Translations under genes and position numbers: made by a program
Part shown: in pieces, positions 1,817 to 46,225 of the stretch
Layout: each line of letters opens with the position of its first letter
Position numbering within the stretch: position 1 is the first letter of the stretch
DNA from: Candidatus Magasanikiibacteriota bacterium
GTDB taxonomy: Bacteria > Patescibacteriota > Patescibacteriia > Magasanikbacterales > GWA2-37-8
Direction: 5' to 3'
DNA length: 64,000 nt
NCBI GenBank assembly: GCA_041666265.1
Contig: JBAYHH010000001.1
Coordinates: 8,056 to 72,055 of the forward strand
The notes under the pieces: model-generated
Told to the model about the DNA's origin: nothing
Seen by the model: the letters and a program-made list of their open reading frames with translations, nothing else
The model's database searches: none

Positions 1817-3730
1817 ATGTCAAAAGTTTTGGGTATAGACTTGGGCACAACCAACAGTTGTATGGCCATCATCGAGGGCGGCCAGCCGAAAGTTCTCGAA
1901 AATAAAGAAGGCGCGCGTACCACACCGTCGGTGGTCGCTATTAGCAAATCCGGTGAACGCCTGGTGGGTCAGCTTGCCAAGCGTCAAGCCGTCACCAATC
2001 CGGAAAACACATTGTATTCCATCAAGCGTCTCATTGGTCGTCGGTTTACCGACTCCGAAGTTCAGCGCGATCTCAAACTGATGCCGTACAAAATCGTGCA
2101 AGCGGGTGAGGGCGTGAAAGTGGCGATGCAGGGAAAAGAATATTCACCGCAAGAAATCTCGGCGATGATTTTGGGCAAAATGAAAGCTGATGCCGAAGAA
2201 CGCATTGGTGAAAAAATTACCGACGCGATTATCACCGTGCCGGCGTATTTTGATGATTCGCAACGCCAGGCCACCAAAGACGCGGGTGTGATTGCCGGTC
2301 TTAATGTTTTGCGCATTATAAACGAACCGACCGCGGCCGCGCTCGCTTATGGTTTTGACAAAAAGACCGAACAAAAAATCGCGGTGTACGATCTCGGCGG
2401 CGGCACTTTTGATATTTCCATTCTTGAAGTCGCGCCGGATAATGTTCAGGTGCTTTCCACCAATGGCGACACCCATCTCGGTGGTGATGACTTTGACCAG
2501 GTTTTGATTCAATATATTTTGGATGAATTCAAAAAAGATCAAGGCATTGATCTGTCCAAAGACAATCTTGCGTTACAACGCATCAAGGAAGCGGCCGAAA
2601 AAGCCAAGATAGAACTGTCCACTTCACAAGAAACCGAAATCAACCAGCCGTTTATTACTTCTGACTCCAACGGTCCCAAACATTTGGTCATGAAACTTAC
2701 TCGCTCCAAATTGGAAGAACTGGTAGGGGATTTGGTGCAACGCTCGCTTGGTCCGGTGCAAAAGGCGCTCGACGATGCCAAACTCAAAGTCAGTGATTTG
2801 CATGAAGTGGTGATGGTCGGCGGTATGACCCGCATGCCACTGGTGATTCAAACAGTCGAGAAATTTTTTGGCAAAAAAGCGAATATCACGGTAAACCCGG
2901 ATGAAGTGGTGGCGATTGGCGCCGGTGTGCAGGGTGGTGTGCTCAAAGGCGATGTCAAAGATATTTTACTTTTGGATGTGACACCTTTGTCGCTTGGTTT
3001 GGAAACCATGGGTAGTGTGATGACCAAATTGATTGAACGCAACACCACTATTCCAACCAGCAAGACGCAAGTTTTTTCTACCGCGGCCGACAATCAGCCG
3101 GGCGTGGAGATCCATGTTTTGCAAGGCGAGCGCCCGATGGCTGGCGACAACAAATCGCTCGGTCGGTTTATGCTCGACGGTATCCCGCCGGCCCCGCGCG
3201 GTGTGCCGCAGGTGGAAGTAACTTTTGACATTGATGCCAACGGCATTTTGAATGTCAAAGCCAAAGACAAAGCCACCAACAAGGAACAAAGCATCAAGAT
3301 CACGGCGTCCACCGGTTTGTCCAAAGACGAAGTGGAACGCATGAAAAAAGAGGCTGAAACGCACGCCGATGAAGATAAGAAAAAACAAGAACTGATCGAA
3401 ACGCGCAATTTGGCGGACACGATGGTATACACCACCGAAAAAATGATGAAAGAAGTGGAAGAAAAAAAAGTCGCCATCACCGATGATGAAAAGAAAAATG
3501 TGGAAGAGGGGATCAAGTATGTGAAGGATTGCAAAGACAAAGATGATGTGGAAGCGATCAAAAAAGCCAGCGAAGCGCTATCCAAGGCGGCGCAGGTGGT
3601 GGGGGCGAAGATGTATAGTGCGAATAGTGCTTCAAATAGTGCGAATGGTAAGGCGAATGATGCGAATACGAACGACGGTGACGCGTCTAAGCAAGATCAG
3701 GGTCCGATTGAAGGCGAGGTGGTGAAATAA
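1817..3730 (+). CDS. dnaK: molecular chaperone DnaK (Hsp70)
   Basis: 637 aa with canonical Hsp70 motifs ([25 protein letters not shown]). Low-complexity S/N/A C-terminal tail. Confidence 0.97.
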
Positions 3731-3778
3731 AATCCTACTATCCAAGGATTTGCCTTGGGATAATTATCCATATTAATT

Positions 3779-4198
3779 ATGAGTGCTTATATTGAGCGTT
3801 TTAATGTTGAAACAGAATGGTTTAGAGGGCAGATGGGGAAATTAAAGGAAAAATTAGGGTCTGCCGATAAGACCTTGGCCAAAATTGATGTTGATACTTT
3901 GACTCATGATGCGTTAGAGTATTGGACGGATTTTTTAGCGATATTAAGATTTTCTGAAAGAGATGATTTTGGCCAACCGGAATGGATAAACGGGTTGAAC
4001 AGAAAAGAGAAAGTTCTGTTTGATAAAATCGTCAAAGACGATACGGGTACGCCGGATGCGCCTTTTATGAATTGGTTAAGAAATTTATTAGCTCCCATTT
4101 CTGGTTATTTAGATTTGATTAAGCATGCCCCAAATAAAGGATCGGAAGAAAAATTGTTGGCAACAATAAAAACATTGTCCGAGAGATTGGATGTGTAA
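3779..4198 (+). CDS. hypothetical protein
   Basis: 139-aa ORF between dnaK and dnaJ. Not GrpE-like. No recognisable motif. Confidence 0.45.
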   Translation: MSAYIERFNVETEWFRGQMGKLKEKLGSADKTLAKIDVDTLTHDALEYWTDFLAILRFSERDDFGQPEWINGLNRKEKVLFDKIVKDDTGTPDAPFMNWLRNLLAPISGYLDLIKHAPNKGSEEKLLATIKTLSERLDV

Positions 4199-4643: not shown

Positions 4644-5765
4644 ATGTCCAAAGATTACTACAAAATACTCGGCGTCGAAAAAAACGCCACGGCCGACGAA
4701 ATAAAAAAGGCGTTTAAAAAACTCGCCATGCAACACCACCCGGACCGACCGGGTGGCGATGAAAAAAAGTTTAAAGAAATAAACGAGGCTTTTCAGGTAC
4801 TCGGCGACGCGGACAAGCGCGCCAAGTTTGACCAGTTTGGATCGGATTTTGAACAGCAGGGCGGTTGGGGTGGCGCCGGCGGTAGTTGGGAAGATATTAT
4901 GAATGCGTTTCGCCAACAGGGCGGGCAAGGTGGTTTTGGTGGTCAAGGGATGAATTTTGACTTCGGGGGTGGTTTTGGAGATATTTTTGGCGATCTGTTT
5001 GGCGGGTCCGCCTCCGCTCGGGCCGGTCGAGCTTCGGCGAGACGCGGTCGCGATATCCAAGTCGATGTAGAAATAGATTTTAAAGAAGCGGCGTTTGGCG
5101 TGGAGCGCGATTTGAATTTACGCAAACAATCCGCCTGTGATGTTTGCGGTGGCACCGGCGCCGAGCCCGGGAGTAAAATGGAAAAATGCGGCACTTGCCA
5201 CGGCCAGGGCCAAGTAGTGCAACAACAACGCACCTTTATGGGCGTGATGCAGACTGTGGCCGCTTGCCCTACCTGCCAAGGCCGAGGCGAACACCCGGGT
5301 AAAAAATGCAAGCACTGCGGTGGTGATGGCGTACTCGCCAAATCCCAAAATGTAAAAGTTAAGATTCCCGCCGGCATTGACGATGGTCAGTCCATTCGCT
5401 TGTCCGGCTATGGCGAAGTGGCTCCGCATGGCGCTGGGGCGGGGGATCTGTATGTGCAAGTGCATGTGCGCCACAACAAACTTTTTCACCGCGAAGGTTT
5501 TGATGTTTACACTGAAAGCGAAATCAATTTCGCGCAGGCGGTGCTGGGCGACAAATTGGAAGTTGAGACTATCGACGGTCCGCTCAAAGTCATGGTCCCC
5601 GAAGGCACCGAATCCGGTGCGCTCATCCGATTAAAAAATCATGGCATCCAACATATCAACAGTAGCGCGCGCGGTGATCATTATATCAAAATAAAAATCC
5701 GCGTGCCCAAAAAACTCTCGCGCGACGCGCGCAAAAAATTGGAAGAAATAAAAAACGACTTGTGA
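4644..5765 (+). CDS. dnaJ: molecular chaperone DnaJ
   Basis: J domain (YYKILGV, HPD), G/F-rich linker, and four CxxCxGxG zinc-finger repeats. ORF 4620..5765; likely start is ATG 4644. Confidence 0.95.
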   Translation: MSKDYYKILGVEKNATADEIKKAFKKLAMQHHPDRPGGDEKKFKEINEAFQVLGDADKRAKFDQFGSDFEQQGGWGGAGGSWEDIMNAFRQQGGQGGFGGQGMNFDFGGGFGDIFGDLFGGSASARAGRASARRGRDIQVDVEIDFKEAAFGVERDLNLRKQSACDVCGGTGAEPGSKMEKCGTCHGQGQVVQQQRTFMGVMQTVAACPTCQGRGEHPGKKCKHCGGDGVLAKSQNVKVKIPAGIDDGQSIRLSGYGEVAPHGAGAGDLYVQVHVRHNKLFHREGFDVYTESEINFAQAVLGDKLEVETIDGPLKVMVPEGTESGALIRLKNHGIQHINSSARGDHYIKIKIRVPKKLSRDARKKLEEIKNDL

Positions 5766-6885: not shown

Positions 6886-8226
6886 TTAGTAATTTAATTT
6901 CCAGACGCCGTCGCTATCACCATATTTCCCACTGAAATATAAAATATGATTGACGCTATCGGCCTCAAAAGAACGCACCGCAGATTTAATGAGTTCGTCG
7001 GTTACCAAATAATACGGAAAAAGAGCGGTGGTATTTTTATTCCAAGATAATGCCAGAGTGTTGTATTTATCCAATGGGACAACTTGTTTTAGGCCTTCAC
7101 CCGAGCGATTTAAAAGCATCGGCTCGCCCCCTTCGCTGTAAGTGATCAATTCCCATGGCGTCCAAAATAGCCACCAGTTATTATATGGTGAAATTAAATA
7201 ATCATTGGCCGCGATTTTGTATGTTCCTTGCGGAGCGACCAGATACATGAGCGATTGACTGGCGTTTTTTAGTAAAATTTGTCCGCGCGCTCCCGTCACT
7301 ATGGAAAGATTGTTAAAATCGGCCGGCAACACTTCGGTATCAATGATGGAGAGGTCGGATGCAAATCCGGCGGTGTCTTTTACGATGCGCAAATTTTGTG
7401 TGTTCGAAGCGGTTTGCATCGTCCAGAGTGCTCCGCCCTCCATATACCAATCTACATACTTATTAGTTGCCACCCGCGCGCTATTACCGGTGATCGGATT
7501 GAGTGAACGAATTTCCTTTTCAGTGGAATAATATATTATACCGGAGTCATCATCAGACCATTGTATTTTGGTGATCGGCGCGCTCTCTGTCGTTAAATCG
7601 ATTTTTTTGGAAAAATTGTCAGCATCAATAATCATCGCCGTATCAAATGGCGCGACCTTGTCAGTGATCAATAGTCGATGACCTTTTTTTGACCACGCTA
7701 CTGCCAATGATTCGGTTTTTTTGTCGGAAAAAATTTTCGTCATCGAATTATTTTGAGTGTTAAAAATCATCACCTGGCGGCCATTCACTCCGGCAAGAAG
7801 CGCGCTGTCAGATGATAAATACAGATCATCGACAGTCGTCGTAGTAATAATTTGCGGATTATTTTTTTTCAAAAGTCCGATTTCTTTGATATAAACCGTT
7901 TGTTTATTTTGAACCTCGATGTCTTTGTTCCAATCATAATATCCGGACGCGGAAATTTTGAGATGATATTTGCGCGGAGTGATGTTGTTGAGGCGAATGG
8001 GCATGCCGGATTTGATTTCCACCCCGCCCAAATTGGCGTTAGCGTCGATCGGCTCGACATCGATGCTCACGGCTCCAATCTCGCGTCGGCGGCCATTTTG
8101 CCAATCATAGCGATAGCCTTGAGTATACATGACGATGAGCGGCGAAATGATAAAAAAAGAGGCGATGAATAGGCCTAAAATCGCTCGCCGAATCGGACGG
8201 GTTAATCTGGTATTGGGATATTCCAT
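6886..8226 (-). CDS. membrane-anchored protein with PEGA-like domain and beta-propeller-like repeats (TolB-like)
   Basis: ORF 6886..8361; the upstream extension overlaps the heptad array, so the start at MEYPNT (8224-8226) is preferred. TM segment, PEGA-like stretch (KYHLKISASGYYDW), repetitive beta-rich C-terminus. Confidence 0.5.
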   Translation of the reverse strand: MEYPNTRLTRPIRRAILGLFIASFFIISPLIVMYTQGYRYDWQNGRRREIGAVSIDVEPIDANANLGGVEIKSGMPIRLNNITPRKYHLKISASGYYDWNKDIEVQNKQTVYIKEIGLLKKNNPQIITTTTVDDLYLSSDSALLAGVNGRQVMIFNTQNNSMTKIFSDKKTESLAVAWSKKGHRLLITDKVAPFDTAMIIDADNFSKKIDLTTESAPITKIQWSDDDSGIIYYSTEKEIRSLNPITGNSARVATNKYVDWYMEGGALWTMQTASNTQNLRIVKDTAGFASDLSIIDTEVLPADFNNLSIVTGARGQILLKNASQSLMYLVAPQGTYKIAANDYLISPYNNWWLFWTPWELITYSEGGEPMLLNRSGEGLKQVVPLDKYNTLALSWNKNTTALFPYYLVTDELIKSAVRSFEADSVNHILYFSGKYGDSDGVWKLNY

Positions 8227-8230
8227 TTTG

Positions 8231-8384
8231 GGTATTAGGTGAGAGGTTAAAGGTGTTAGGCGCGAATGGTTGCCAATCACTGATTTATGTAGTATAATCA
8301 TACTATCTAAAAAAATGGTAATTGTCAAAGATGATTCCGCCATTTTTGGTATTTTTACCAATACCTTTCACCTAATACCTACAA
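8231..8384. repeat. inverted pair of AGGT heptad arrays (locus 1) in the divergent region upstream of murA
   Basis: Left array 8231..8260 GGTATTAGGTGAGAGGTTAAAGGTGTTAGG. Right array 8359..8384 is its approximate reverse complement (CCAATACCTTTCACCTAATACCTACA). Confidence 0.55.
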
Positions 8385-8392
8385 GCTAAGAT

Positions 8393-9703
8393 ATGTCCCA
8401 TCTCATCATCAACGGCGGAAAAAAATTACAAGGCGAAATCGTCAATCAATCGGCCAAAAATAGCGCTGTGGCGATTTTGTGCGCTTGTTGCGCTATTCGC
8501 GGCCGCACCAGCTTGGTAGCGGTGCCAGAGATTGAAGAAGTCAATCGGATTATTGAGCTCATCAGGAGTATCGGCGTGAAAGTCGAGATGACAGGCAAAG
8601 GAAATTTGACCGTGGATGCTTCGGGTGATTTGGATTTGTCGCATATTGATCGCAGCGCTTCCGAAAAAACTCGCTCATCACTCATGCTCATGGGCGCTCT
8701 TGCCAGTCGCGAAAAAAAATACAAAATTTTTAAATCAGGTGGGTGCAAGCTGGGACAACGCACGGTGAAGCCGCATATTTTTGCGTTGGAAAAATTTGGT
8801 GTCGAAGTCGAGTCCAAAGACGGATATTATGAAATAAAAAATAACTTGCTTCGCCCCGCGCACCTCGTGATGTATGAGTCGGGCGACACTGCCACCGAAA
8901 ACGCCATCATGGCGGCCGCGCAGACCGTCGGTGAAACTGTGATCAAGATGGCCTCGGCCAATTACATGGTGCAGGATTTGTGTCATTTTTTGGTGAGAGC
9001 CGGCGCTCGTATCGATGGTATCGGTACGACCACGCTCAAGATTCATGGAGTGGAAAAATTGACTCCGGTTGAGAATTATTCGATCATGCCCGACCCGATC
9101 GTGGCCATGACATATATCGCCGCCGCCATTGTCACGCGTTCACACCTCACTATCACCAATTGCCCACTTGAATTTTTAGAGCTCGAACTCGTCAAACTCG
9201 AAAAAATGGGGCAAAAATTTAAATTGAAAAATAATCGCCTGTCGGTCGGTGGAAACTTTGAGATCGTAGATATAGAAATTTTACCAAGCGACCTCGTTGC
9301 TCCTCCTGACAAGATCGATGGTCGGCCTTTTCCGGGATTAAATCTCGACAATTTGCCATTGTTTATTCCGATTCTGGCTATGGCCGAGGGGCGCACTCTC
9401 GTGCATGATTGGGCTTATGAAAATCGCGCGATGTATAGTTTTGATCTTTTGAAATTGGGCGCGCGCGTCACTGTGCTTGATCCGCACCGGGTGTTTGTTG
9501 AGGGGCCAAGCGAGCTCAAGGCGGCCGAAATTATCGCTCCGCCCGCGCTTCGTCCGGCGGTCAATGTTTTGATCTGCATGCTCGGAGCCAAAGGGCAGAG
9601 TATTTTGCGCAATACCTACGAGATTGACCGCGGTTATGAGAATCTTTATGAGACCTTAAATATCGCCGGAGCGGATATTAAGATAGTTGACGATAATATT
9701 TAA
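8393..9703 (+). CDS. murA: UDP-N-acetylglucosamine 1-carboxyvinyltransferase
   Basis: Collinear with MurA. Active-site Cys in KSGGCKLGQR. Two-domain EPT fold signature. Confidence 0.9.
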   Translation: MSHLIINGGKKLQGEIVNQSAKNSAVAILCACCAIRGRTSLVAVPEIEEVNRIIELIRSIGVKVEMTGKGNLTVDASGDLDLSHIDRSASEKTRSSLMLMGALASREKKYKIFKSGGCKLGQRTVKPHIFALEKFGVEVESKDGYYEIKNNLLRPAHLVMYESGDTATENAIMAAAQTVGETVIKMASANYMVQDLCHFLVRAGARIDGIGTTTLKIHGVEKLTPVENYSIMPDPIVAMTYIAAAIVTRSHLTITNCPLEFLELELVKLEKMGQKFKLKNNRLSVGGNFEIVDIEILPSDLVAPPDKIDGRPFPGLNLDNLPLFIPILAMAEGRTLVHDWAYENRAMYSFDLLKLGARVTVLDPHRVFVEGPSELKAAEIIAPPALRPAVNVLICMLGAKGQSILRNTYEIDRGYENLYETLNIAGADIKIVDDNI

Positions 9704-9800: not shown

Positions 9801-11069
9801 ATGAACCTTTCTCCTTCCAAAATCCGCGCGCATAAATACGCCGGCATCTACATTGCCGTCATTTTGTTTATTATTTCATTTGGCCTTGGCGTTTTGGCCG
9901 GGCAGGCGTGGTATGTGCGCGGTCAAATCACCGGCGACAGCGGTAATGTGGAAATTTCCAAACTATTAAATTTCAAGCGCAACGCCAATCGATCCGACAG
10001 TGTTGACTTTAATGAATTTTGGAATGTTTGGGATAAAATCCGAGAAAAATATGTGAAGTCCGGCACAGTCAAAGATACGGATTTATTTTATGGCGCCGTC
10101 CAAGGGCTGGTGTATGCGCTCGGTGATCCATATTCTGTGTATTTGCCACCCAAATCAGCTGACGAATTTGCTAAAAGTTTATCCGGCGAATTTGAGGGTA
10201 TTGGCGCGGAGATCGGCTTGAAACTCGGCCAGCTCGTAGTGGTATCGCCACTACCTGATTCACCCGCTCAAAAAGCCGGTCTGCGCCCGGGAGATCAAAT
10301 CCTCGCTATCGACAAAGTAGATACGACCGGCATGGATTCGACCGCCGCGGTGATGAAGATTCGCGGCCAGGCCGGCACACCGGTGGTCCTCATGATTGCG
10401 CGCGCCGGATCAACCAAGACCATCGATATCACTATTATTCGCGCCAAGATCAATGTTCCGTCGGTGATGTTTGAGTGGAAAGGCGACCCCGCCAGTGACG
10501 GGGCAGGCAAAGTGGCGTATGTGCGCGTGATGCAATTTAATGAAAATACGACCGGTGATTTTGATCGCTATGTTCGTCAGCTTAAAAAAGACGGAGCCAA
10601 GGCGATGATTCTCGATCTGCGTAATAATCCGGGTGGCTACCTTGATTCCGCCGTGACGATGGCGAGCGAGTGGATCAAAGACGGCAAGATCGTGAGCGAG
10701 AGATTTTCTTCGACCACAATCAATACACACGAAACCGAAGGGGAGCATCGTTTGTTTGGTCTCAAGACCGCGGTGCTCATCAATGGTGGTTCGGCATCGG
10801 CCAGCGAGATAGTGGCGGGTGCGCTTCAAGATCACAAATCAGCGACGATTATCGGAGAGAAATCATTTGGCAAGGGAAGTGTGCAGGAGTTTGAGACTTT
10901 TGATGATGGTTCCGCTTTGAAATTGACCGTAGCCGAATGGCTCACTCCCAATGGCAAAAATATCAATGAATCCGGCATCACGCCCGACATCGAAGTAATA
11001 GAGGATTTCGAAAAAGAAAAAGTGGGCGAGGATGTGATGATTGATCGAGCGCTTCAGATATTGAATTAA
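9801..11069 (+). CDS. S41 family C-terminal processing peptidase (Ctp/Prc) with PDZ domain
   Basis: N-terminal TM. PDZ region (GLRPGDQILAIDKVD). S41 catalytic region (LINGGSASASEIVAGAL...GEKSFGKGSVQ). Confidence 0.9.
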   Translation: MNLSPSKIRAHKYAGIYIAVILFIISFGLGVLAGQAWYVRGQITGDSGNVEISKLLNFKRNANRSDSVDFNEFWNVWDKIREKYVKSGTVKDTDLFYGAVQGLVYALGDPYSVYLPPKSADEFAKSLSGEFEGIGAEIGLKLGQLVVVSPLPDSPAQKAGLRPGDQILAIDKVDTTGMDSTAAVMKIRGQAGTPVVLMIARAGSTKTIDITIIRAKINVPSVMFEWKGDPASDGAGKVAYVRVMQFNENTTGDFDRYVRQLKKDGAKAMILDLRNNPGGYLDSAVTMASEWIKDGKIVSERFSSTTINTHETEGEHRLFGLKTAVLINGGSASASEIVAGALQDHKSATIIGEKSFGKGSVQEFETFDDGSALKLTVAEWLTPNGKNINESGITPDIEVIEDFEKEKVGEDVMIDRALQILN

Positions 11070-40686: not shown

Positions 40687-40741
40687 AACATCCTAAACGA
40701 TGTTAGAACTTTTTTTGAAAAAAATTATTAAGGGCTATTGT

Positions 40742-40830
40742 GTAGGGACTTCGCCCCTACAACCCCTGCCTACCGGTAGGCAGGCCACGAAAATGGGGCG
40801 GGCAAAAAGGCGCCGCCGTTCTCATTTTTA
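40742..40830 (+). promoter_or_regulatory. cluster of three GC-rich hairpins at the island left end (possible attP remnant, structured leader or terminator cluster)
   Basis: GTAGGG-ACTTCGC-CCCTAC (40742-40760). Perfect 20-bp palindrome CCTGCCTACCGGTAGGCAGG (40765-40784). GGCGG-GCAAAAAGGCG-CCGCC followed by a T-run. Confidence 0.4.
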
Positions 40831-40892
40831 CTCTTGTGGATAACTTTTGATATTTTTCTAAATTTATCTTATATTAGCCAAATTATCACTAC

Positions 40893-40921
40893 TTGACATA
40901 GACCAAATAGTCATATAATAT
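40893..40921 (+). promoter_or_regulatory. candidate promoter of the lexA-like / R-M operon
   Basis: TTGACA at 40893-40898 with TATAAT/TAATAT at 40913-40921, 8-16 nt upstream of ATG 40929. Confidence 0.45.
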
Positions 40922-40928
40922 AGAATAT

Positions 40929-41576
40929 ATGGCTAAAACTATCACCAAAAGACAACTTGATGCACTAAATTTGATATATCAGAATACCAAGAGCTCTGGT
41001 TTTCCGCCTAGTATGGCAGAAATGCGCGACGCACTTAGTGTAGCATCAAATCAATCAATAATCAACCTATTGAAGGCTTTGGAGGAAAAAGGTTGTATAA
41101 AACGCGAAGAAGGGCTTGCGCGTGGATTAAAAATTTTACCAAAAGGATTCAGTGTCCTCGGCGTTGACCCGATAGTTCCGGTCGTAGGGCAGAGTTCGTG
41201 CGGTCCGTTTATTGAGGCCACGCAAGAAATTGGCAACTGGACTGTGTTGCCGGGCATAACCAACGAAGTACAAGAATCGCAGGACAAAATTTTTGCCATT
41301 CAGGTGTGTGGCGATAGTATGATTAACGCCGGCATTTATGATGGGGATATGTTATTGGTAAAACAGACACGCGAATTTAAAAATGGTGATATTGTAGTCG
41401 CTCGTAGCGATGACGGCACCACCGTTAAAAGATTCGTTGCAGAAAATAAACGCGCTTATCTAAAGCCGGAAAATCCGGCCTACAAAAATATTCCAATTTT
41501 TGAAGAAACATATTTTGATGGCAAAGTAATTGCCAATTTAAGTACTTTAAAAAGAATGTATGAACCAAAAAATTAA
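40929..41576 (+). CDS. lexA: LexA-type repressor (winged-HTH + S24 peptidase)
   Basis: N-terminus collinear with the LexA DNA-binding domain (LTKRQLDALNLIYQNTKSSGFPPSMAEMRDALSV...LLKALEEKGCIKR). S24 catalytic Ser (VCGDSMINAGIYDGDMLLV) and Lys (TTVKRF). The putative cleavage site is Cys-Gly (VGQSSCGPF), as in UmuD. Confidence 0.85.
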   Translation: MAKTITKRQLDALNLIYQNTKSSGFPPSMAEMRDALSVASNQSIINLLKALEEKGCIKREEGLARGLKILPKGFSVLGVDPIVPVVGQSSCGPFIEATQEIGNWTVLPGITNEVQESQDKIFAIQVCGDSMINAGIYDGDMLLVKQTREFKNGDIVVARSDDGTTVKRFVAENKRAYLKPENPAYKNIPIFEETYFDGKVIANLSTLKRMYEPKN

Positions 41577-43488
41577 CAGCGCGGTGCTAAATAAAATTTT
41601 TCACGATTCCGGCGCGCAATACGGCCTTAAAGAATTTGAAAATGTCAAACCGGTGGAGGTTTTGGATATTTTTGAGAAAGAAAAAGGCAAATTTTATATT
41701 AAATGTCTCAAGCGCGACAAAGATATTTTATTGTTTAGCAACGAAAAGAATTTATCCAAGCCCGAGGAAGTTATTCGTCAATTATGGTTATTTAAATTGA
41801 CCAAATATTATAATTACCCGCTTGACCGGATTGATTTGGAAAAAGATATTCGTTTTGGACATGAGATTCACGCTAAAGCGGCGGATATCATTATTTATCG
41901 TGAAGATAAAGAAACTCCGCTTATAATCATTGAAACCAAAAATCCGGCGGTAGAAAAGGGTTTAGATCAATTAAAAACCTATATCAATTCCGAAGGCGCG
42001 CCTATCGGCGTGTGGAGCAATGGCGTGGAAAAAGTCGTTTTGTACCGCCCTTATCCGCGCGAATTCCAAACTTTACGCGATTTACCACGCGTAGATCAAA
42101 CAATTGACGATGTCTTGGAGGAAAAATTAACCCTTGACGATTTACACAAAGATTATGATTTGGTAAAAATTCTCAAAATTTTAGAGGAACTTGTTTTGGC
42201 CAGCGCGGGTGTAGATTCGTTTAATGAAATTTTTAAACTCATTTACGCCAAGTTATTTGACGAAAAAGAGGCGCGCAAACGAAAAGATAATGAATTGTAT
42301 TTCCGACAGTCCAAAGATCCAAAAATTACTCTTGATGTTATTAATAAACTTTTTCAGAGCGCCTGCCAAGAGTGGCCAGGGATATTTAGTAGTTATGAAA
42401 AAATAGAACTTACGCCCAATCACCTCGCTGTTTGTGTGGATGAATTTTCAAAAATAAGATTATTGGACGCTAATTTGGAAGTAATTGATGCCGCCTTTGA
42501 ATATTTATTACCTGATGTCGCCAAGGGCAAACGCGGGCAATATTTCACTCCGCGCCATGTGATAGATATGGCGGTAAAAATGCTCAATCCCAAGGACGGT
42601 GAATATATTATTGATCCGGCATGTGGGAGCGGTGGATTTCTTATTCACGCCATGCGTTATGTTTGGAACAACAACTTAAAACACGCTGACAAACAAGCCA
42701 AAACAGATTATGCCCGCAAATATATCTATGGAATTGATTTTGATGATAAACCGGTAAAAATCGCCCGCGCCATGATGCTTATTGCTGGTGACGGTAAATC
42801 ACACATCTTGAAATTGAATTCGCTTAACACCAAAGAGTGGCAGGGTGATGAAAGCGAAAAAGAACGCGCGCGCGCCGAATTGCGCGATCGATTACACAAA
42901 TTTGATGATTACGACAAAGACAAAAATAATAAAGATAACTTTAAATATTTTGACTTTGATATTTTATTATCAAACCCACCCTTTGCTGGCGAGATTCACG
43001 AAACCCCACTACTCAAAGAATACGAACTGGCAAAAAACGACAAAGGCAAGTTGCGTAATAAAATGGAGCGACACATTTTGTTTATTGAACGCTCGCTTGA
43101 TTTGGTAAAACCAGGTGGGCGTATGGCGATTGTTTTACCGCAGGGCGTGTTTAATAATAGCAACATGGAATATGTGCGCGATTACTTATTGGACAAAGCA
43201 CGTATTTTGGCAGTCGTTGGATTAGAAGTAAACACATTCAAACCGCACACCGGCACCAAGACCAGTGTAATATTTTTACAAAAATGGGGCGCAAAAGAAA
43301 ACAAACCAAAGGATTATCCTATTTTTATGGCCGTTTCCAAAAAATCAGGCAAGGATAATTCCGGCGATTATGTTTATCGCAAGGACAAAGAAGGCAGTTT
43401 GATGTTTGATGAGCAGGGGAAAAAAATATTGGAGCATGATTTGGATGAAATTGCGGAGGAGTATTTGAAATTTACAGAAAAAATATGA
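41560..43488 (+). CDS. BcgI-A-like bifunctional restriction endonuclease / N6-adenine DNA methyltransferase
   Basis: N-terminal HSDR_N-type PD-(D/E)xK motif (AADIIIY...PLIIIETK...LDQLKTY). Gamma-class N6-MTase motifs (DPACGSGGFL, NPPF). 642 aa, comparable to BcgI A subunit. Start overlaps the lexA-like gene by 17 nt. Confidence 0.8.
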   Translation: MNQKINSAVLNKIFHDSGAQYGLKEFENVKPVEVLDIFEKEKGKFYIKCLKRDKDILLFSNEKNLSKPEEVIRQLWLFKLTKYYNYPLDRIDLEKDIRFGHEIHAKAADIIIYREDKETPLIIIETKNPAVEKGLDQLKTYINSEGAPIGVWSNGVEKVVLYRPYPREFQTLRDLPRVDQTIDDVLEEKLTLDDLHKDYDLVKILKILEELVLASAGVDSFNEIFKLIYAKLFDEKEARKRKDNELYFRQSKDPKITLDVINKLFQSACQEWPGIFSSYEKIELTPNHLAVCVDEFSKIRLLDANLEVIDAAFEYLLPDVAKGKRGQYFTPRHVIDMAVKMLNPKDGEYIIDPACGSGGFLIHAMRYVWNNNLKHADKQAKTDYARKYIYGIDFDDKPVKIARAMMLIAGDGKSHILKLNSLNTKEWQGDESEKERARAELRDRLHKFDDYDKDKNNKDNFKYFDFDILLSNPPFAGEIHETPLLKEYELAKNDKGKLRNKMERHILFIERSLDLVKPGGRMAIVLPQGVFNNSNMEYVRDYLLDKARILAVVGLEVNTFKPHTGTKTSVIFLQKWGAKENKPKDYPIFMAVSKKSGKDNSGDYVYRKDKEGSLMFDEQGKKILEHDLDEIAEEYLKFTEKI

Positions 43489-44342
43489 CATTAGCAGATT
43501 TATTAACCGAAAGGATTAATGAGACCGGATTTCCTTTCCAGGAGGAATGCTACCAATTTATTAAAGATACAAAAAATTTTGTTACAAAAGAATATCCATA
43601 TTCGTTTATCGGAGTTGATGGTTCGGTAGATATTTTGACTTTAAAGATTCCGCCCCTTGATGATTTTGGCGATTCTTTTTGGCCAATCATGTCTATTGAA
43701 TGTAAAAAAAGTAAACCCGGTATTAAAAATTGGTGCTTTATTAAGACGGATAGAGGTGGTTATGGAACAAAACCATTATTTGTGGTTTCAATAGTAAGCG
43801 CGGAAAGTGAAGCAAAATTATCATTTTCATCTGAATTATACTCATTTGATAGATTGAAATTTTTTAACGACAAAATGGTAACAATTGATGAAGTTGTAAA
43901 TTTTGGGTTTGAAAGCAACATACTTGCGGAATCTCTTAATAGAAATCAGGAAGAAAAAATTTATAAGTCGCTACTTCAAAGCGTAAGCGGTATTACTTAT
44001 GTTGAGAAAAAAAAGTTTCCCAATATACCGGAGCTGCGGCTGAATGAAGACAAAATTAATGGATTAAGTCGTAGGACACTTCCGCCGTCATACCCGACAA
44101 TTATTTTTATACCAATAGTGTTGACCACATCGGACTTATATGTGGCTAATTTTAATCCTAATAATGTTAAAGACGGTGAAATTGATAATGGAAGTGTCAC
44201 CTGGGTTCAGAAGAATTGGGTTTTTTATGATTTTGGTTTGCCTGATTATCTGCAACAAGATGAACTGGTTTACAGAGGCGTATTTATTGTCAACAATAAA
44301 CATTTTCCGGTATTTTATAATACATTGATGCCATCATTTTAA
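43485..44342 (+). CDS. hypothetical protein, possible PD-(D/E)xK nuclease-fold accessory protein
   Basis: 285 aa, ATGA-overlapped with the MTase gene. Candidate motif GVDGSVDILTL...IMSIECKKSK. No other homology recognisable by eye. Confidence 0.45.
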   Translation: MTLADLLTERINETGFPFQEECYQFIKDTKNFVTKEYPYSFIGVDGSVDILTLKIPPLDDFGDSFWPIMSIECKKSKPGIKNWCFIKTDRGGYGTKPLFVVSIVSAESEAKLSFSSELYSFDRLKFFNDKMVTIDEVVNFGFESNILAESLNRNQEEKIYKSLLQSVSGITYVEKKKFPNIPELRLNEDKINGLSRRTLPPSYPTIIFIPIVLTTSDLYVANFNPNNVKDGEIDNGSVTWVQKNWVFYDFGLPDYLQQDELVYRGVFIVNNKHFPVFYNTLMPSF

Positions 44343-44345
44343 TTT

Positions 44346-45722
44346 ATGGTTTTTTCAATAATACAAAAGTCCCAACTTGAGGGCGCACAACGATTAGATG
44401 CTGAATATTATCAGCCAGAGTATTTAAAATTGGAGAGTAATTTGGGAAAAAATAATTTATCCCTAAAATTTTTTAGTGATATTTTAGAAAAGGAGAATTC
44501 TTTGACCGGAGGTGCCACTCCATTGGGCGCAGACTACCCAAGTAGTGGAGTTAGATTTTTGCGTGTACAAAATATTATGCAAGGATTTTTAGATTTTGAT
44601 GATGTTGTATTTATCTCTCAGCAAACAAATGATAATCAGTTAAAACGATCTCAATTAGTGGACAGTGATGTGTTATTAACCATCACTGGTGTTTCTTATG
44701 GCAAATCGGCGGTGTATAAAAAATCTTGTGGCCCATGTAATATTAATCAACATTCTGTTAGAATGCGTTTTATTGAAAAAATTTTACCTGAATATGTTGC
44801 TACTTTTTTAAATTCAAAATATGGTAGATTTCAATCGGATAGAAAAATTACAGGTGACACCCGACCAGCGCTAGCATACGAAGAAATTAAAAATTATTTA
44901 ATTCCAATATTTGACATTGAGCAACAAAAAAATATTCAAAAAATTTATACTAAAGCGAATAATTTATTGGATGAATCAGAGAATATATATAAAAACGCTT
45001 TAGATATTTTTTTAAGCGAAACAAATGTAAATTGGTTTAGTGAGAATAAAATTTATTATTCCGTTGTTAATTTATTCGAAGTACAAACCGTCAATCGTTT
45101 TGACGCAGAATATTTTAATTCCCCGTGCAATAAAATTCTAACGCAGATTATTAAAGGCAAAACCGCCAAATTAGGCGACCTGGCGGACATGACAAAAGGT
45201 GTTGAGCCTGGGGCCGACGCGTATCAAGATGAAGGAAAATTATTTATCCGCGTTAGTAGTATTTCCAAAGATGGCATAATAGATAAAGACCAAAAATATT
45301 TGAGTGATGATTTGTATAATGAATATAAAAAAGATTACCAACCACAGGTTGGTGATGTACTTTTGACAAAAGATGCTTCGATAGGCGTTGCTTGTGTGGT
45401 ACGAGAGTCGGTTGAAGGAATTGTGGCTGGTGGAGTTTTACGATTAAAATTAAAGGAAAAGATGAATCCGGAATATTTGGCTTTAGTGTTAAATTCTATC
45501 GTTGGTCAAATGCAGGCCAAACGAGACGCCGGTGGCTCTATTATCGCTCACTGGAAACCAGAACAAATAAAAAATTTAGTAGTTCCAATTTTGCCTGCCG
45601 CAACTCAAGAAAAAATCGCGGGCTTGATCGTTAAATCGCACGAAGCCCGTAAAAAAGCGAAGAGGTTACTTGAAGAGGCAAAATTAAAGGTCGAGGAAAT
45701 GATAGAAAAAGGAGGTAGATAA
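44346..45722 (+). CDS. restriction-modification specificity subunit (HsdS/BcgI-B-like) with two target-recognition domains
   Basis: Duplicated TRD framing motifs (RLDAEYYQPEY and RFDAEYFNSP). Conserved central and C-terminal helices. Confidence 0.85.
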   Translation: MVFSIIQKSQLEGAQRLDAEYYQPEYLKLESNLGKNNLSLKFFSDILEKENSLTGGATPLGADYPSSGVRFLRVQNIMQGFLDFDDVVFISQQTNDNQLKRSQLVDSDVLLTITGVSYGKSAVYKKSCGPCNINQHSVRMRFIEKILPEYVATFLNSKYGRFQSDRKITGDTRPALAYEEIKNYLIPIFDIEQQKNIQKIYTKANNLLDESENIYKNALDIFLSETNVNWFSENKIYYSVVNLFEVQTVNRFDAEYFNSPCNKILTQIIKGKTAKLGDLADMTKGVEPGADAYQDEGKLFIRVSSISKDGIIDKDQKYLSDDLYNEYKKDYQPQVGDVLLTKDASIGVACVVRESVEGIVAGGVLRLKLKEKMNPEYLALVLNSIVGQMQAKRDAGGSIIAHWKPEQIKNLVVPILPAATQEKIAGLIVKSHEARKKAKRLLEEAKLKVEEMIEKGGR

Positions 45723-46114
45723 TAATAATAATTTTATGTCGTGGATAAAAGTAAAGGATCCAAATTTTTTCCCAAGGTTACCGAGCTTACCGCGATTACC
45801 TCGGTTGCCAAGTTTGCCGAAAATACCAAAAATCCCATCAATCAGACCGATAAAGCCAATAGCACCATTGGGTTATAAGTATGTTTGGCGTGAACCCAAA
45901 TAATTTGAAGTAGGTAGAGCGAGCGGGATGGAGGAGTGCCAAGATCCGAGGAGGTTGGTAATTACGAAAGCCCAACCCAACCGCGACCGAAATAATTGTT
46001 TCCAAAACCTCGCTAAAAAGTGGGGTTTTGTTTTCTAAAATTGGGAGCACCATTTGCCCGCCCGATTAATAATTTTTTTAAAAAAGGTTCGAGCTTCGTT
46101 CAGTAATTACGACA

Positions 46115-46154
46115 ACAAAACAACGCTATGTTACAAGCGTTGTTTTGTTGGTCG
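46115..46154 (+). repeat. direct repeat B (overlaps the 3' terminus of tRNA-Pro)
   Basis: Identical 40-mer. 46149..46154 are the tRNA 3' end (CGACCA on the minus strand). Confidence 0.9.
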
Positions 46155-46225
46155 GGGTGCCGGGACTTGAACCCGGAATCTCGTGAACCCGAATCACGCG
46201 CCTTAGCCAATTGGGCCACACCCCG
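46149..46225 (-). tRNA. tRNA-Pro (anticodon CGG), CCA encoded
   Basis: Manual cloverleaf. Acceptor CGGGGTG/CACCCCG. U8. D-arm GCCC/GGC with loop containing GG. Anticodon stem CGTGA/TCACG with loop TTCGGGT. T-arm CCGGG-TTCAAGT-CCCGG. Discriminator A then CCA. Confidence 0.85.

Follow-up and report, generated by a model that had tools for sequence, protein, structure and literature searches.

What is the gene that lies between the methylase and specificity genes of a restriction-modification (R-M) operon in a Candidatus Magasanikiibacteriota bacterium, and is its product part of the enzyme encoded on either side of it? The locus is found in a 64,000-nucleotide stretch of contig JBAYHH010000001.1 (assembly GCA_041666265.1, positions 8,056 to 72,055 of the forward strand), which we call the window. 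There, an unannotated gene for a 285-aa protein, here X, is enclosed by the gene for a fused nuclease-methylase, M, and the gene for a specificity subunit, S. The reading that we favor, and that we hold to be about evenly balanced between right and wrong, is that X is an embedded accessory nuclease, self-contained and carried in a cargo slot, and not a fixed subunit of the M-S enzyme. The gene itself is as an earlier note on this DNA had described it: the coordinates and length of the open reading frame (ORF) are borne out by the sequence, as are its junctions, with M ending at 43488 within the string ATGA (a 4-nt ATG/TGA overlap) and the stop codon of X (TAA, 44340-44342) separated by 3 nt (TTT) from the start of S at 44346. 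The 2 peptides quoted there, GVDGSVDILTL and IMSIECKKSK, are present as residues 43-53 and 68-77. Judged by its relatives, X is a real gene and not a chance ORF, because full-length homologs exist that are similar in size and conserved along their whole length.

These relatives form a rare family that is not covered by any curated library. The earlier statement that X has no obvious homology proved accurate, with neither X alone nor its family profile matching anything in Pfam, NCBIfam, PADLOC, PHROGs, or the PDB sequences; sequence and profile searches of the PDB with X likewise returned nothing usable. A word-indexed search retrieved an identical protein from a Candidatus Magasanikbacteria metagenome-assembled genome (MAG) and 10 full-length homologs with 40-57% identity; these 11 matches are 285-306 aa long and every one is labelled hypothetical. 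An exhaustive HMMER search with X yielded 120 cluster representatives at E<=1e-3, and a profile search with the X family yielded 235 proteins (E<=1e-5), none of them named, that belong to Acidobacteriota, Nitrospirota, and further phyla. Family members are typically about 280-305 aa long. In an alignment of 94 sequences, reaching down to 17% identity, G15, F18, P38, D49, E72, C73, K74, W83, F85, Q165, P210, and T214 are invariant, and E36, E143, T215, G231, and R264 are nearly so. Because conservation spans the whole protein, X proteins are a single family rather than a domain fusion. Candidates for fused or displaced copies of X were discarded: M is long in Trichormus (917 aa) and in Picosynechococcus (1179 aa), but the X profile matches only the N-terminal HSDR_N_2 domain there, and the 263-aa gene after S in Klebsiella is not an X copy either. 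The family was not found in IMG/VR viral contigs, PHROGs, or plasmids, and given this absence a phage or plasmid origin of X is not supported.

What the family conserves points to a nuclease. The acidic/lysine signature E...D...(D/E)xK occurs in canonical order throughout the 94 aligned sequences, and the core of X runs from 2 helices through a beta hairpin carrying E36 and D49 to a strand carrying E72-C73-K74, followed by KNWCF. Two AlphaFold2 models, based on 11 sequences (predicted local distance difference test, pLDDT, 83.9; predicted template modeling score, pTM, 0.88) and on 94 sequences (pLDDT 91.6; pTM 0.91), place helices at residues 3-13 and 16-27 and strands at residues 32-41 (E36), 44-53 (D49), and 64-74 (E72, K74). 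As modeled, this helix-helix-strand-strand-strand placing of the signature is the usual PD-(D/E)xK arrangement. The hidden Markov model (HMM) of the X family, moreover, singles out the N-terminal HSDR_N_2 domain of M homologs. When the X family (alignment A2) was aligned by hhalign with an 11-sequence alignment of M N-terminal domains, the probability was 89.8% (P=1.8e-6), and Q19, E36, D49, E72, and K74 of X were paired with Q73, E94, D109, E125, and K127 of the window M; as a control, the methylase part of the same M proteins gave 0.1%. With a deeper X alignment (A6), the probability against the HSDR_N_2 domain was 70-78%, and the Pfam HSDR_N_2 HMM stays below threshold for the X family, with a match to 1 of 66 members at E=0.099. 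X resembles HSDR_N_2 (PF13588) in that Q, E, D, and ExK follow one another in the same order and at the same spacing along a helix-strand-strand-strand core, and differs from it by an insertion of ~70 residues, modeled as beta structure, after the ExK strand and by a conserved C-terminal half of its own (PVVVTT, GxI, YxFxLPD, RxxxIVN) that has no known counterpart.

Comparison of both models with the PDB by Foldseek gave no significant match (best E about 0.5). The only local matches with a low root-mean-square deviation (3.7-4.9 A over 43-71 residues), none of them significant, are PD-(D/E)xK nucleases, namely AF1548 (1y88), the R2 retrotransposon endonuclease domain (8ibz, 9dou, 8gh6), Cdn1 (9u49), and Cas4 (4r5q). 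Taking signature, profiles, and models together, we consider a PD-(D/E)xK catalytic core of HSDR_N_2 type very probable for X; in the models, this core sits within a larger architecture unseen in solved structures. The fold suggested in the earlier note therefore stands as far as signature and profile similarity go, and structural comparison did not add proof of it. No Pfam match, and hence no HsdR-type superfamily 2 motor (ResIII/helicase) domain, accompanies this single nuclease-like core. A non-catalytic X, that is, a protein that binds DNA or has a regulatory task and whose nuclease scaffold has degenerated, such as an anti-restriction sensor or a modulator of M-S, would suit the lack of a significant structural match and the roughly 200 of 285 residues that lie outside the recognizable core. 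Inactive nuclease scaffolds, however, normally lose the acidic/lysine signature, which X proteins keep strictly and in full at 17-20% identity, and we regard this explanation as highly improbable.

The place of X relative to the M-S enzyme can be read from the distribution of the 2 families. M belongs to a family of 6826 proteins at E<=1e-100, more than 120 of which are at least 66% identical to it, spread over many lineages of the Candidate Phyla Radiation (CPR, or Patescibacteria) and occurring even in Pacearchaeota MAGs; against more than 6800 M homologs stand about 235 X-family proteins and only 11 close X homologs. Three islands (L062, L063, and L064; compared loci carry L numbers) were picked through M alone, independently of X. 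All are of the form LexA-M-...-S, headed by the gene for a LexA-like repressor, and in 3/3 the slot between M and S holds one or more genes other than X (Table 1). The NYN RNase in L063 (Pfam E=8e-25) matches the PADLOC models NYN and HEC-09; apart from NYN, no Pfam family was found in the non-X slot genes, and none of the slot genes that we considered as divergent X homologs (437, 261, 255, 165, and 125 aa, and NYN) is one. X, then, does not occur wherever its cognate M and S occur. A blastn comparison of the window with L062 shows the exchange at nucleotide level: positions 40810-43473 are 90.8% identical, the match ends 12 nt before the start of X, the whole X gene is without similarity, and the match resumes at the start codon of S (44345-44434, 82%; 45002-46061, 87.6%; 46069-46225, 71%). 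The genes flanking the island block differ between the two. Because identity breaks at the borders of X, the flanks differ, GC content is low (X 0.332, S 0.344, M 0.385, LexA 0.406; whole window 0.451), and a tRNA-Pro gene lies at the right edge in both genomes, X is by these marks a separate cassette, held in a slot with variable content within a mobile ~5.4-kb island. It is nested in the same orientation within a multi-gene R-M operon whose slot, in close relatives, holds unrelated alternatives.

Where X is present, its position recurs. The order M-X-S is found in the window, in L003, and in L018 (X 30% and M 63% identical to their counterparts in the window); the slot reads M-437aa-X-S in L001 and L002, M-X-261aa-S in L021, and NYN fragment-X-S in L020, and in 5 of these loci the X-S junction is tight, with an overlap of at most 5 nt or a gap of at most 5 nt. 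Compared with L001, the window has 78% identity in M, 63% in LexA, 50% in X, and 43% in S. Closest to the X of L018, at 46%, is that of L019, which lies outside any M-S slot, behind a gene combining a helix-turn-helix (HTH) domain with Peptidase_M78 (ImmA/IrrE-like); at least 2 X clades have therefore entered or left the slot. In L004, X follows a LexA_DNA_bind/HTH_3 regulator, a beta-class N6_N4 methylase, a 388-aa protein, and a 217-nt gap. This 388-aa protein (2863-4029) has a C-terminal IDIML...IELK motif and weak matches to HSDR_N_2 and NucS_C; the X homolog probably adjoins an ordinary type II system here, with this protein as the endonuclease. In L017, a divergent LexA and X are followed by a 28-codon remnant of the C-terminal end of S (1666-1749), and M is absent; L017 is a decayed island that kept X.

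Farther from the window, the association with R-M genes dissolves. A scan of GTDB genomes with an alignment of the close X subfamily found no loci; with an alignment of the distant subfamily, and one genome per species, 40 loci from more than 10 phyla were found, among them Acidobacteriota, Gemmatimonadota, Chloroflexota, Desulfobacterota, Bacteroidota, Planctomycetota, Verrucomicrobiota, Nitrospirota, Thermotogae, and KSB1. Within 5 kb of these, no M- or S-like gene was detected with the window M and S as queries, and clustering of the ORFs revealed no partner common to more than 5 loci. Recurrent neighbors were limited to an HTH gene and a 155-aa gene, both confined to closely related Thermoanaerobaculia, and the Pfam content of 120 genes flanking distant X is heterogeneous, with 2 each of RE_BanI, Eco57I, Mrr_cat, SLFN_AlbA_2, and ResIII. 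As to the refuting condition named in the earlier note, that homologs never occur with R-M genes, close homologs do show this association and distant ones essentially lack it. Going by these gene neighborhoods, the X family can exist without any methylase, and a specificity-matched type II endonuclease is therefore excluded. As a separate observation, the Thermoanaerobaculia loci share a trio of an opposite-strand 155-aa gene, an XRE-type HTH gene of ~100 aa, and X (L007 6158-7846; L008 6151-7846; L022-L024), with an HTH-S24 peptidase gene 2-3 kb away.

With these loci at hand, the proposal of the earlier note that X is a second cleavage subunit can be weighed. Its HSDR_N_2-like domain would pair with that of M to make a double-strand cut, like the small subunits of heterodimeric type IIS enzymes. 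M does have a nuclease-like domain of its own, as the note had said, ahead of N6_Mtase (Pfam E=8e-41), and the shared domain type, the tight junctions of X with both M and S, the recurrence of X between M and S with tight X-S junctions (window, L003, L018, L001/L002, L021, L020), and the presence of 2 divergent X clades in the same slot would all agree with a joint enzyme. Yet where M is 89-98% identical to that of the window, the slot is filled by membrane proteins, by an NYN RNase, or by a 125-aa ORF instead; the E-D-ExK of M is intact in X-containing loci; plasmids carry M-S pairs with an empty slot; and X-family members are mostly solitary. Faced with unrelated slot genes beside near-identical M, an M family far larger than that of X, and distant homologs with no methylase within 5 kb, X as a constituent cleavage subunit is not supported, and we consider it unlikely.

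The same solitary, patchy distribution across phyla, with its few restriction-gene neighbors (RE_BanI, Eco57I, Mrr_cat, and SLFN_AlbA_2, 2 each among the 120 genes), would suit a different role, that of an autonomous, modification-dependent (type IV-like) restriction endonuclease, or a DNA-damage-inducible nuclease of a mobile element, merely sharing a LexA-controlled transcript. Such an enzyme would not require a cognate methylase, and X often adjoins damage-responsive regulators, be it LexA (window, L001-L003, and L017), an XRE HTH with an S24 peptidase (L007, L008, and L022-L024), or the HTH-ImmA/IrrE-like gene of L019. On the other side, no domain for reading modified bases, such as a winged helix, SRA, or EVE/PUA-like domain, is recognizable in X, either by Pfam or by Foldseek matches to MspJI, PvuRts1I, or Mrr-type structures, although a new reader domain is possible in the conserved C-terminal half; X is absent from phage and plasmid collections; and its exact position between M and S is hardly due to chance alone. 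We give this explanation little credence.

The accessory or abortive-infection-type effector that the earlier note listed among its alternatives fits the data best, and it has parallels. Genes within Type I RM, BREX, DISARM, and Hma operons are often independent defense genes ("guilt by embedding"; Payne et al., bioRxiv 10.1101/2024.01.29.577857), and the classic embedded back-up case is PrrC in the EcoprrI hsdMSR locus (10.1101/2024.01.29.577857). Like such genes, X is nested in an R-M operon at a position where the occupants vary between nucleases, RNases, and small membrane proteins, one of which, the NYN protein of L063, matches PADLOC models for NYN and HEC-09. Unlike them, X is hosted by a LexA-headed, two-gene system of M (a nuclease-methylase fusion) and S in CPR bacteria, and not by HsdRMS, BREX, or Hma. 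We infer the nuclease activity and substrate of X, its independence of M-S, its role in defense, and its control by LexA, and propose the following mechanism. LexA, M, X, and S would be transcribed together from the LexA-proximal promoter, with coupled translation at the tight junctions, and the promoter of the island would be repressed by LexA. M and S would methylate and restrict. X, one of several interchangeable cargo genes in the M-S slot of a mobile, LexA-headed R-M island, would be a metal-dependent (Mg2+) PD-(D/E)xK endonuclease with E36, D49, and E72-x-K74 as its core, of the same type as the HSDR_N_2 domain of M; it probably serves as an additional self-contained effector, either a second layer of defense or a toxin, whose activity is probably independent of the sequence specified by S.

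Several points weigh against an independent passenger. In at least 6 independent loci, X is placed between M and S and its junctions overlap or nearly abut, and 2 X clades with a mutual identity of ~30% are both found there; this recurrence could mean a functional or physical link to M-S instead of hitch-hiking, and the recurrence of 2 clades is the main observation that an independent passenger does not fully explain. The islands sampled through M independently of X number only 3. No defense phenotype is known for any member of the X family, and the family is absent from PADLOC. X could also be a latent back-up effector, held inactive by M-S and freed when a phage anti-restriction protein disables M-S, following by analogy the logic of PrrC and EcoprrI with a nuclease for DNA in place of an anticodon nuclease. 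The embedding of X inside an R-M operon, the resemblance of other slot occupants (an NYN RNase and small membrane proteins) to typical abortive-infection effectors, and the PrrC precedent (10.1101/2024.01.29.577857) speak for it; against it, X has no ABC-ATPase or other sensor domain, an interaction of X with M-S has no direct evidence, and neither the solitary homologs nor L017 has an M-S that could restrain X. We therefore see only a small chance of it. X is also no homolog of PrrC or RloC: it lacks both an ATPase motif and an anticodon-nuclease domain, and no Pfam or PADLOC model matches it. To us improbable as well is the idea of a site dedicated to cassette exchange between M and S, perhaps marked by TGTGGATAA, at which alternative effectors such as X, an NYN RNase, or small membrane proteins join one LexA-controlled, R-M-like sensor. 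M-S would then, besides restricting DNA, license whichever effector occupies the slot, in the manner of a modular "one sensor, many effectors" abortive infection based on a restriction enzyme.

Compared with known systems, the host of X resembles, by its layout, the BcgI type (IIB), with a PD-(D/E)xK domain fused to a gamma-class N6-adenine methylase in M, a separate S with 2 target-recognition domains, and no HsdR. BcgI-type enzymes pair a nuclease-methylase A subunit with a separate, S-like B subunit, and BcgI is not known to have a third gene between A and B. Among PADLOC models, the window M fits "Type I MTase" (MTase_I) best, at E=1.6e-184; matches to the IIG models are confined to the methylase core. 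Neither HsdR nor any other helicase gene is encoded anywhere in the window. Plasmid-borne M homologs (25-46% identity) either have S directly after them or are themselves fused to further domains, none with HsdR nearby, and the E-D-ExK of the N-terminal domain is kept in 10 of the 11 M proteins compared, including all from X-containing loci. From this layout, M and S are probably a self-sufficient two-subunit methylase/nuclease of type IIB-like design. AhdI is a type II endonuclease whose system includes a type I-like M2S2 methylase as well as a controller protein (PMC2275141, PMC2878638), and is similar in having a small stand-alone nuclease gene beside M and S methylase genes and a DNA-binding regulator. 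The AhdI endonuclease, however, must match the specificity of its M.S methylase, whereas X homologs are found beside differing S domains, beside a beta-class N6_N4 methylase (L004), or without any methylase, and X is therefore not a specificity-matched type II enzyme. In MADS (methylation-associated defense system, mad1-8), mad3 and mad4 lie between the methylase and S genes, and MAD6, MAD7, and MAD8 are mandatory (bioRxiv 10.1101/2023.03.30.534895). M resembles MAD2 (NCBIfam E=3e-96) and S resembles MAD5 (1.7e-43), but with scores far under the NCBIfam cut-offs (323 bits against 720 for M, 149 against 400 for S), no MAD6-8 in the window, and no mad model matching X, we rejected membership in MADS. 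X is best classed as a new family in the PD-(D/E)xK superfamily whose gene occurs embedded in an R-M operon.

CPR bacteria are thought to be poor in defense systems and are not culturable alone. The arrangement of LexA, nuclease-methylase fusion, variable cargo, and S appears to be a common yet undescribed module in their genomes, and a compact island with a swappable effector slot would allow new CPR defense genes to be found by position. For X itself, the predicted active site is clear and the model confident, with no close structural relative, and X would be a small candidate nuclease for biochemistry if it needs no partner; its interest rises if the slot is a general site of effector exchange. 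In addition, restriction headed by an autocleavable LexA-type repressor would tie restriction to DNA damage.

Table 1. Features of the R-M island in the window, and genes other than X found in the M-S slot of related loci (positions in the lower rows are those of the locus named).
Feature	Position	Strand	Basis or remark
Island, ~5.4 kb: promoter, LexA, M, X, S, terminator, tRNA-Pro	40810..46225	.	Block common to sister island L062 (blastn)
DnaA-box consensus TTATCCACA (TGTGGATAA on the + strand), 5' of LexA gene	40835..40843	-	Same 9-mer 5' of every LexA in related islands
Promoter-like TTGACA-17-TAATAT; spacer TAGACCAAATAGTCAT conserved, partly palindromic, candidate operator	40893..40921	+	Scan; alignment with L001 and L003
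LexA-like repressor, 215 aa, LexA_DNA_bind + Peptidase_S24	40929..41576	+	Pfam; overlaps start of M by 17 nt
M, 642 aa, N-terminal HSDR_N_2 fused to gamma-class N6-adenine methyltransferase	41560..43488	+	Pfam; NPPF at residue 472
HSDR_N_2 nuclease-like domain of M, residues 68-176	41761..42087	+	Pfam E=1e-20; E94, D109, E125-x-K127 intact
X, 285-aa protein of unannotated family (subject of this study)	43485..44342	+	ATG start, 285 codons
Predicted catalytic-core region of X, residues 12-86	43518..43742	+	Invariant columns, model secondary structure, hhalign against HSDR_N_2
S, specificity subunit, 458 aa, two Methylase_S target-recognition domains	44346..45722	+	Pfam
First target-recognition domain of S, unrelated to that of sister island (swapped)	44435..45001	+	Gap in blastn match with L062
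Terminator-like hairpin, then T run, 3' of S	46003..46030	+	Scan
tRNA-Pro(CGG), right edge of island	46149..46225	-	Equivalent in L062 is tRNA-Pro(TGG), 10684-10758 (-)
L062 slot: 255-aa protein, C-terminal membrane helices	7936-8703		M 98% and LexA 92% identical to window
L063 slot: NYN RNase; 165-aa protein with N-terminal membrane helix	7949-8533; 8725-9222		M 89% identical
L064 slot: 125-aa ORF	7966-8343		M 91% identical
L001 slot: additional 437-aa protein, predicted membrane helices	6607-7920
L021 slot: additional 261-aa protein, predicted membrane helices	1110-1895
L020 slot: NYN fragment	2-349

The gene for LexA lies immediately 5' of M in L001, L002, L003, L062, L063, L064, and every M-slot locus that reaches far enough, and a full-length LexA gene, whose product has GDSM and VKRF motifs, comes first in each such island examined (L001 3952-4596; L003 5512-6123; L062 5370-6017; L063 5364-6017; L064 5312-5959). 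It lies inside the low-GC block and moves with it into differing genomic neighborhoods; an R-M module headed by its own autocleavable LexA-type repressor is unusual. A TTGACA-N17-TATAAT promoter is kept before LexA in the window (40893-40925), L001 (about 3917-3945), and L003 (about 5478-5506). The spacer of the L003 promoter is ACTGACTAAATAGTCAGT, i.e., CTG-N10-CAG, and resembles the E. coli SOS box; the promoter spacer is a candidate operator for the LexA of the island. A second conserved element, the perfect DnaA-box consensus TTATCCACA (TGTGGATAA in the orientation of the operon), is found 5' of every LexA gene in the related islands and also at several cargo junctions of the M-S slot, for example 10 nt ahead of X in L020 and 28 nt ahead of S in L064. 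Its sites are L001 3870-3878, L003 5457-5465, L017 678-686, L062 5276-5284, L020 419-427, and L004 4040-4048, with 2 each in L063 (5036-5044 and 8647-8655) and L064 (5217-5225 and 8588-8596); roughly 100 kb of such loci contain about 15 copies, against fewer than 1 expected. The element may have a regulatory role or may mark cassette junctions.

Other observations concern M, S, and the borders of the island. M proteins 68-69% identical to that of the window occur in MAGs of Candidatus Pacearchaeota (DPANN archaea; P0339 and P0348), which suggests either that the module was transferred between CPR bacteria and these archaea or that binning went wrong. In a Bacteroides finegoldii plasmid (L013, 4662-11941), an HTH gene stands in front of an M homolog that has lost the ExK of its N-terminal domain, followed by S and a large serine/threonine kinase, an arrangement that is MADS- or BREX-like. 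Between the window and L062, the first target-recognition domain of S shows no similarity (8796-9356 in L062) and the second is conserved, a classic half-specificity swap between islands that otherwise share ~88-91% DNA identity. The left edge of the island abuts an 89-nt GC-rich element (40722-40810), which has no Rfam match and is 89.9% identical to a copy in L062 (1629-1717) that lies 3.5 kb upstream of the island. At the right edge, a tRNA-Pro gene is present in both Magasanikbacteria genomes and may be an integration site.

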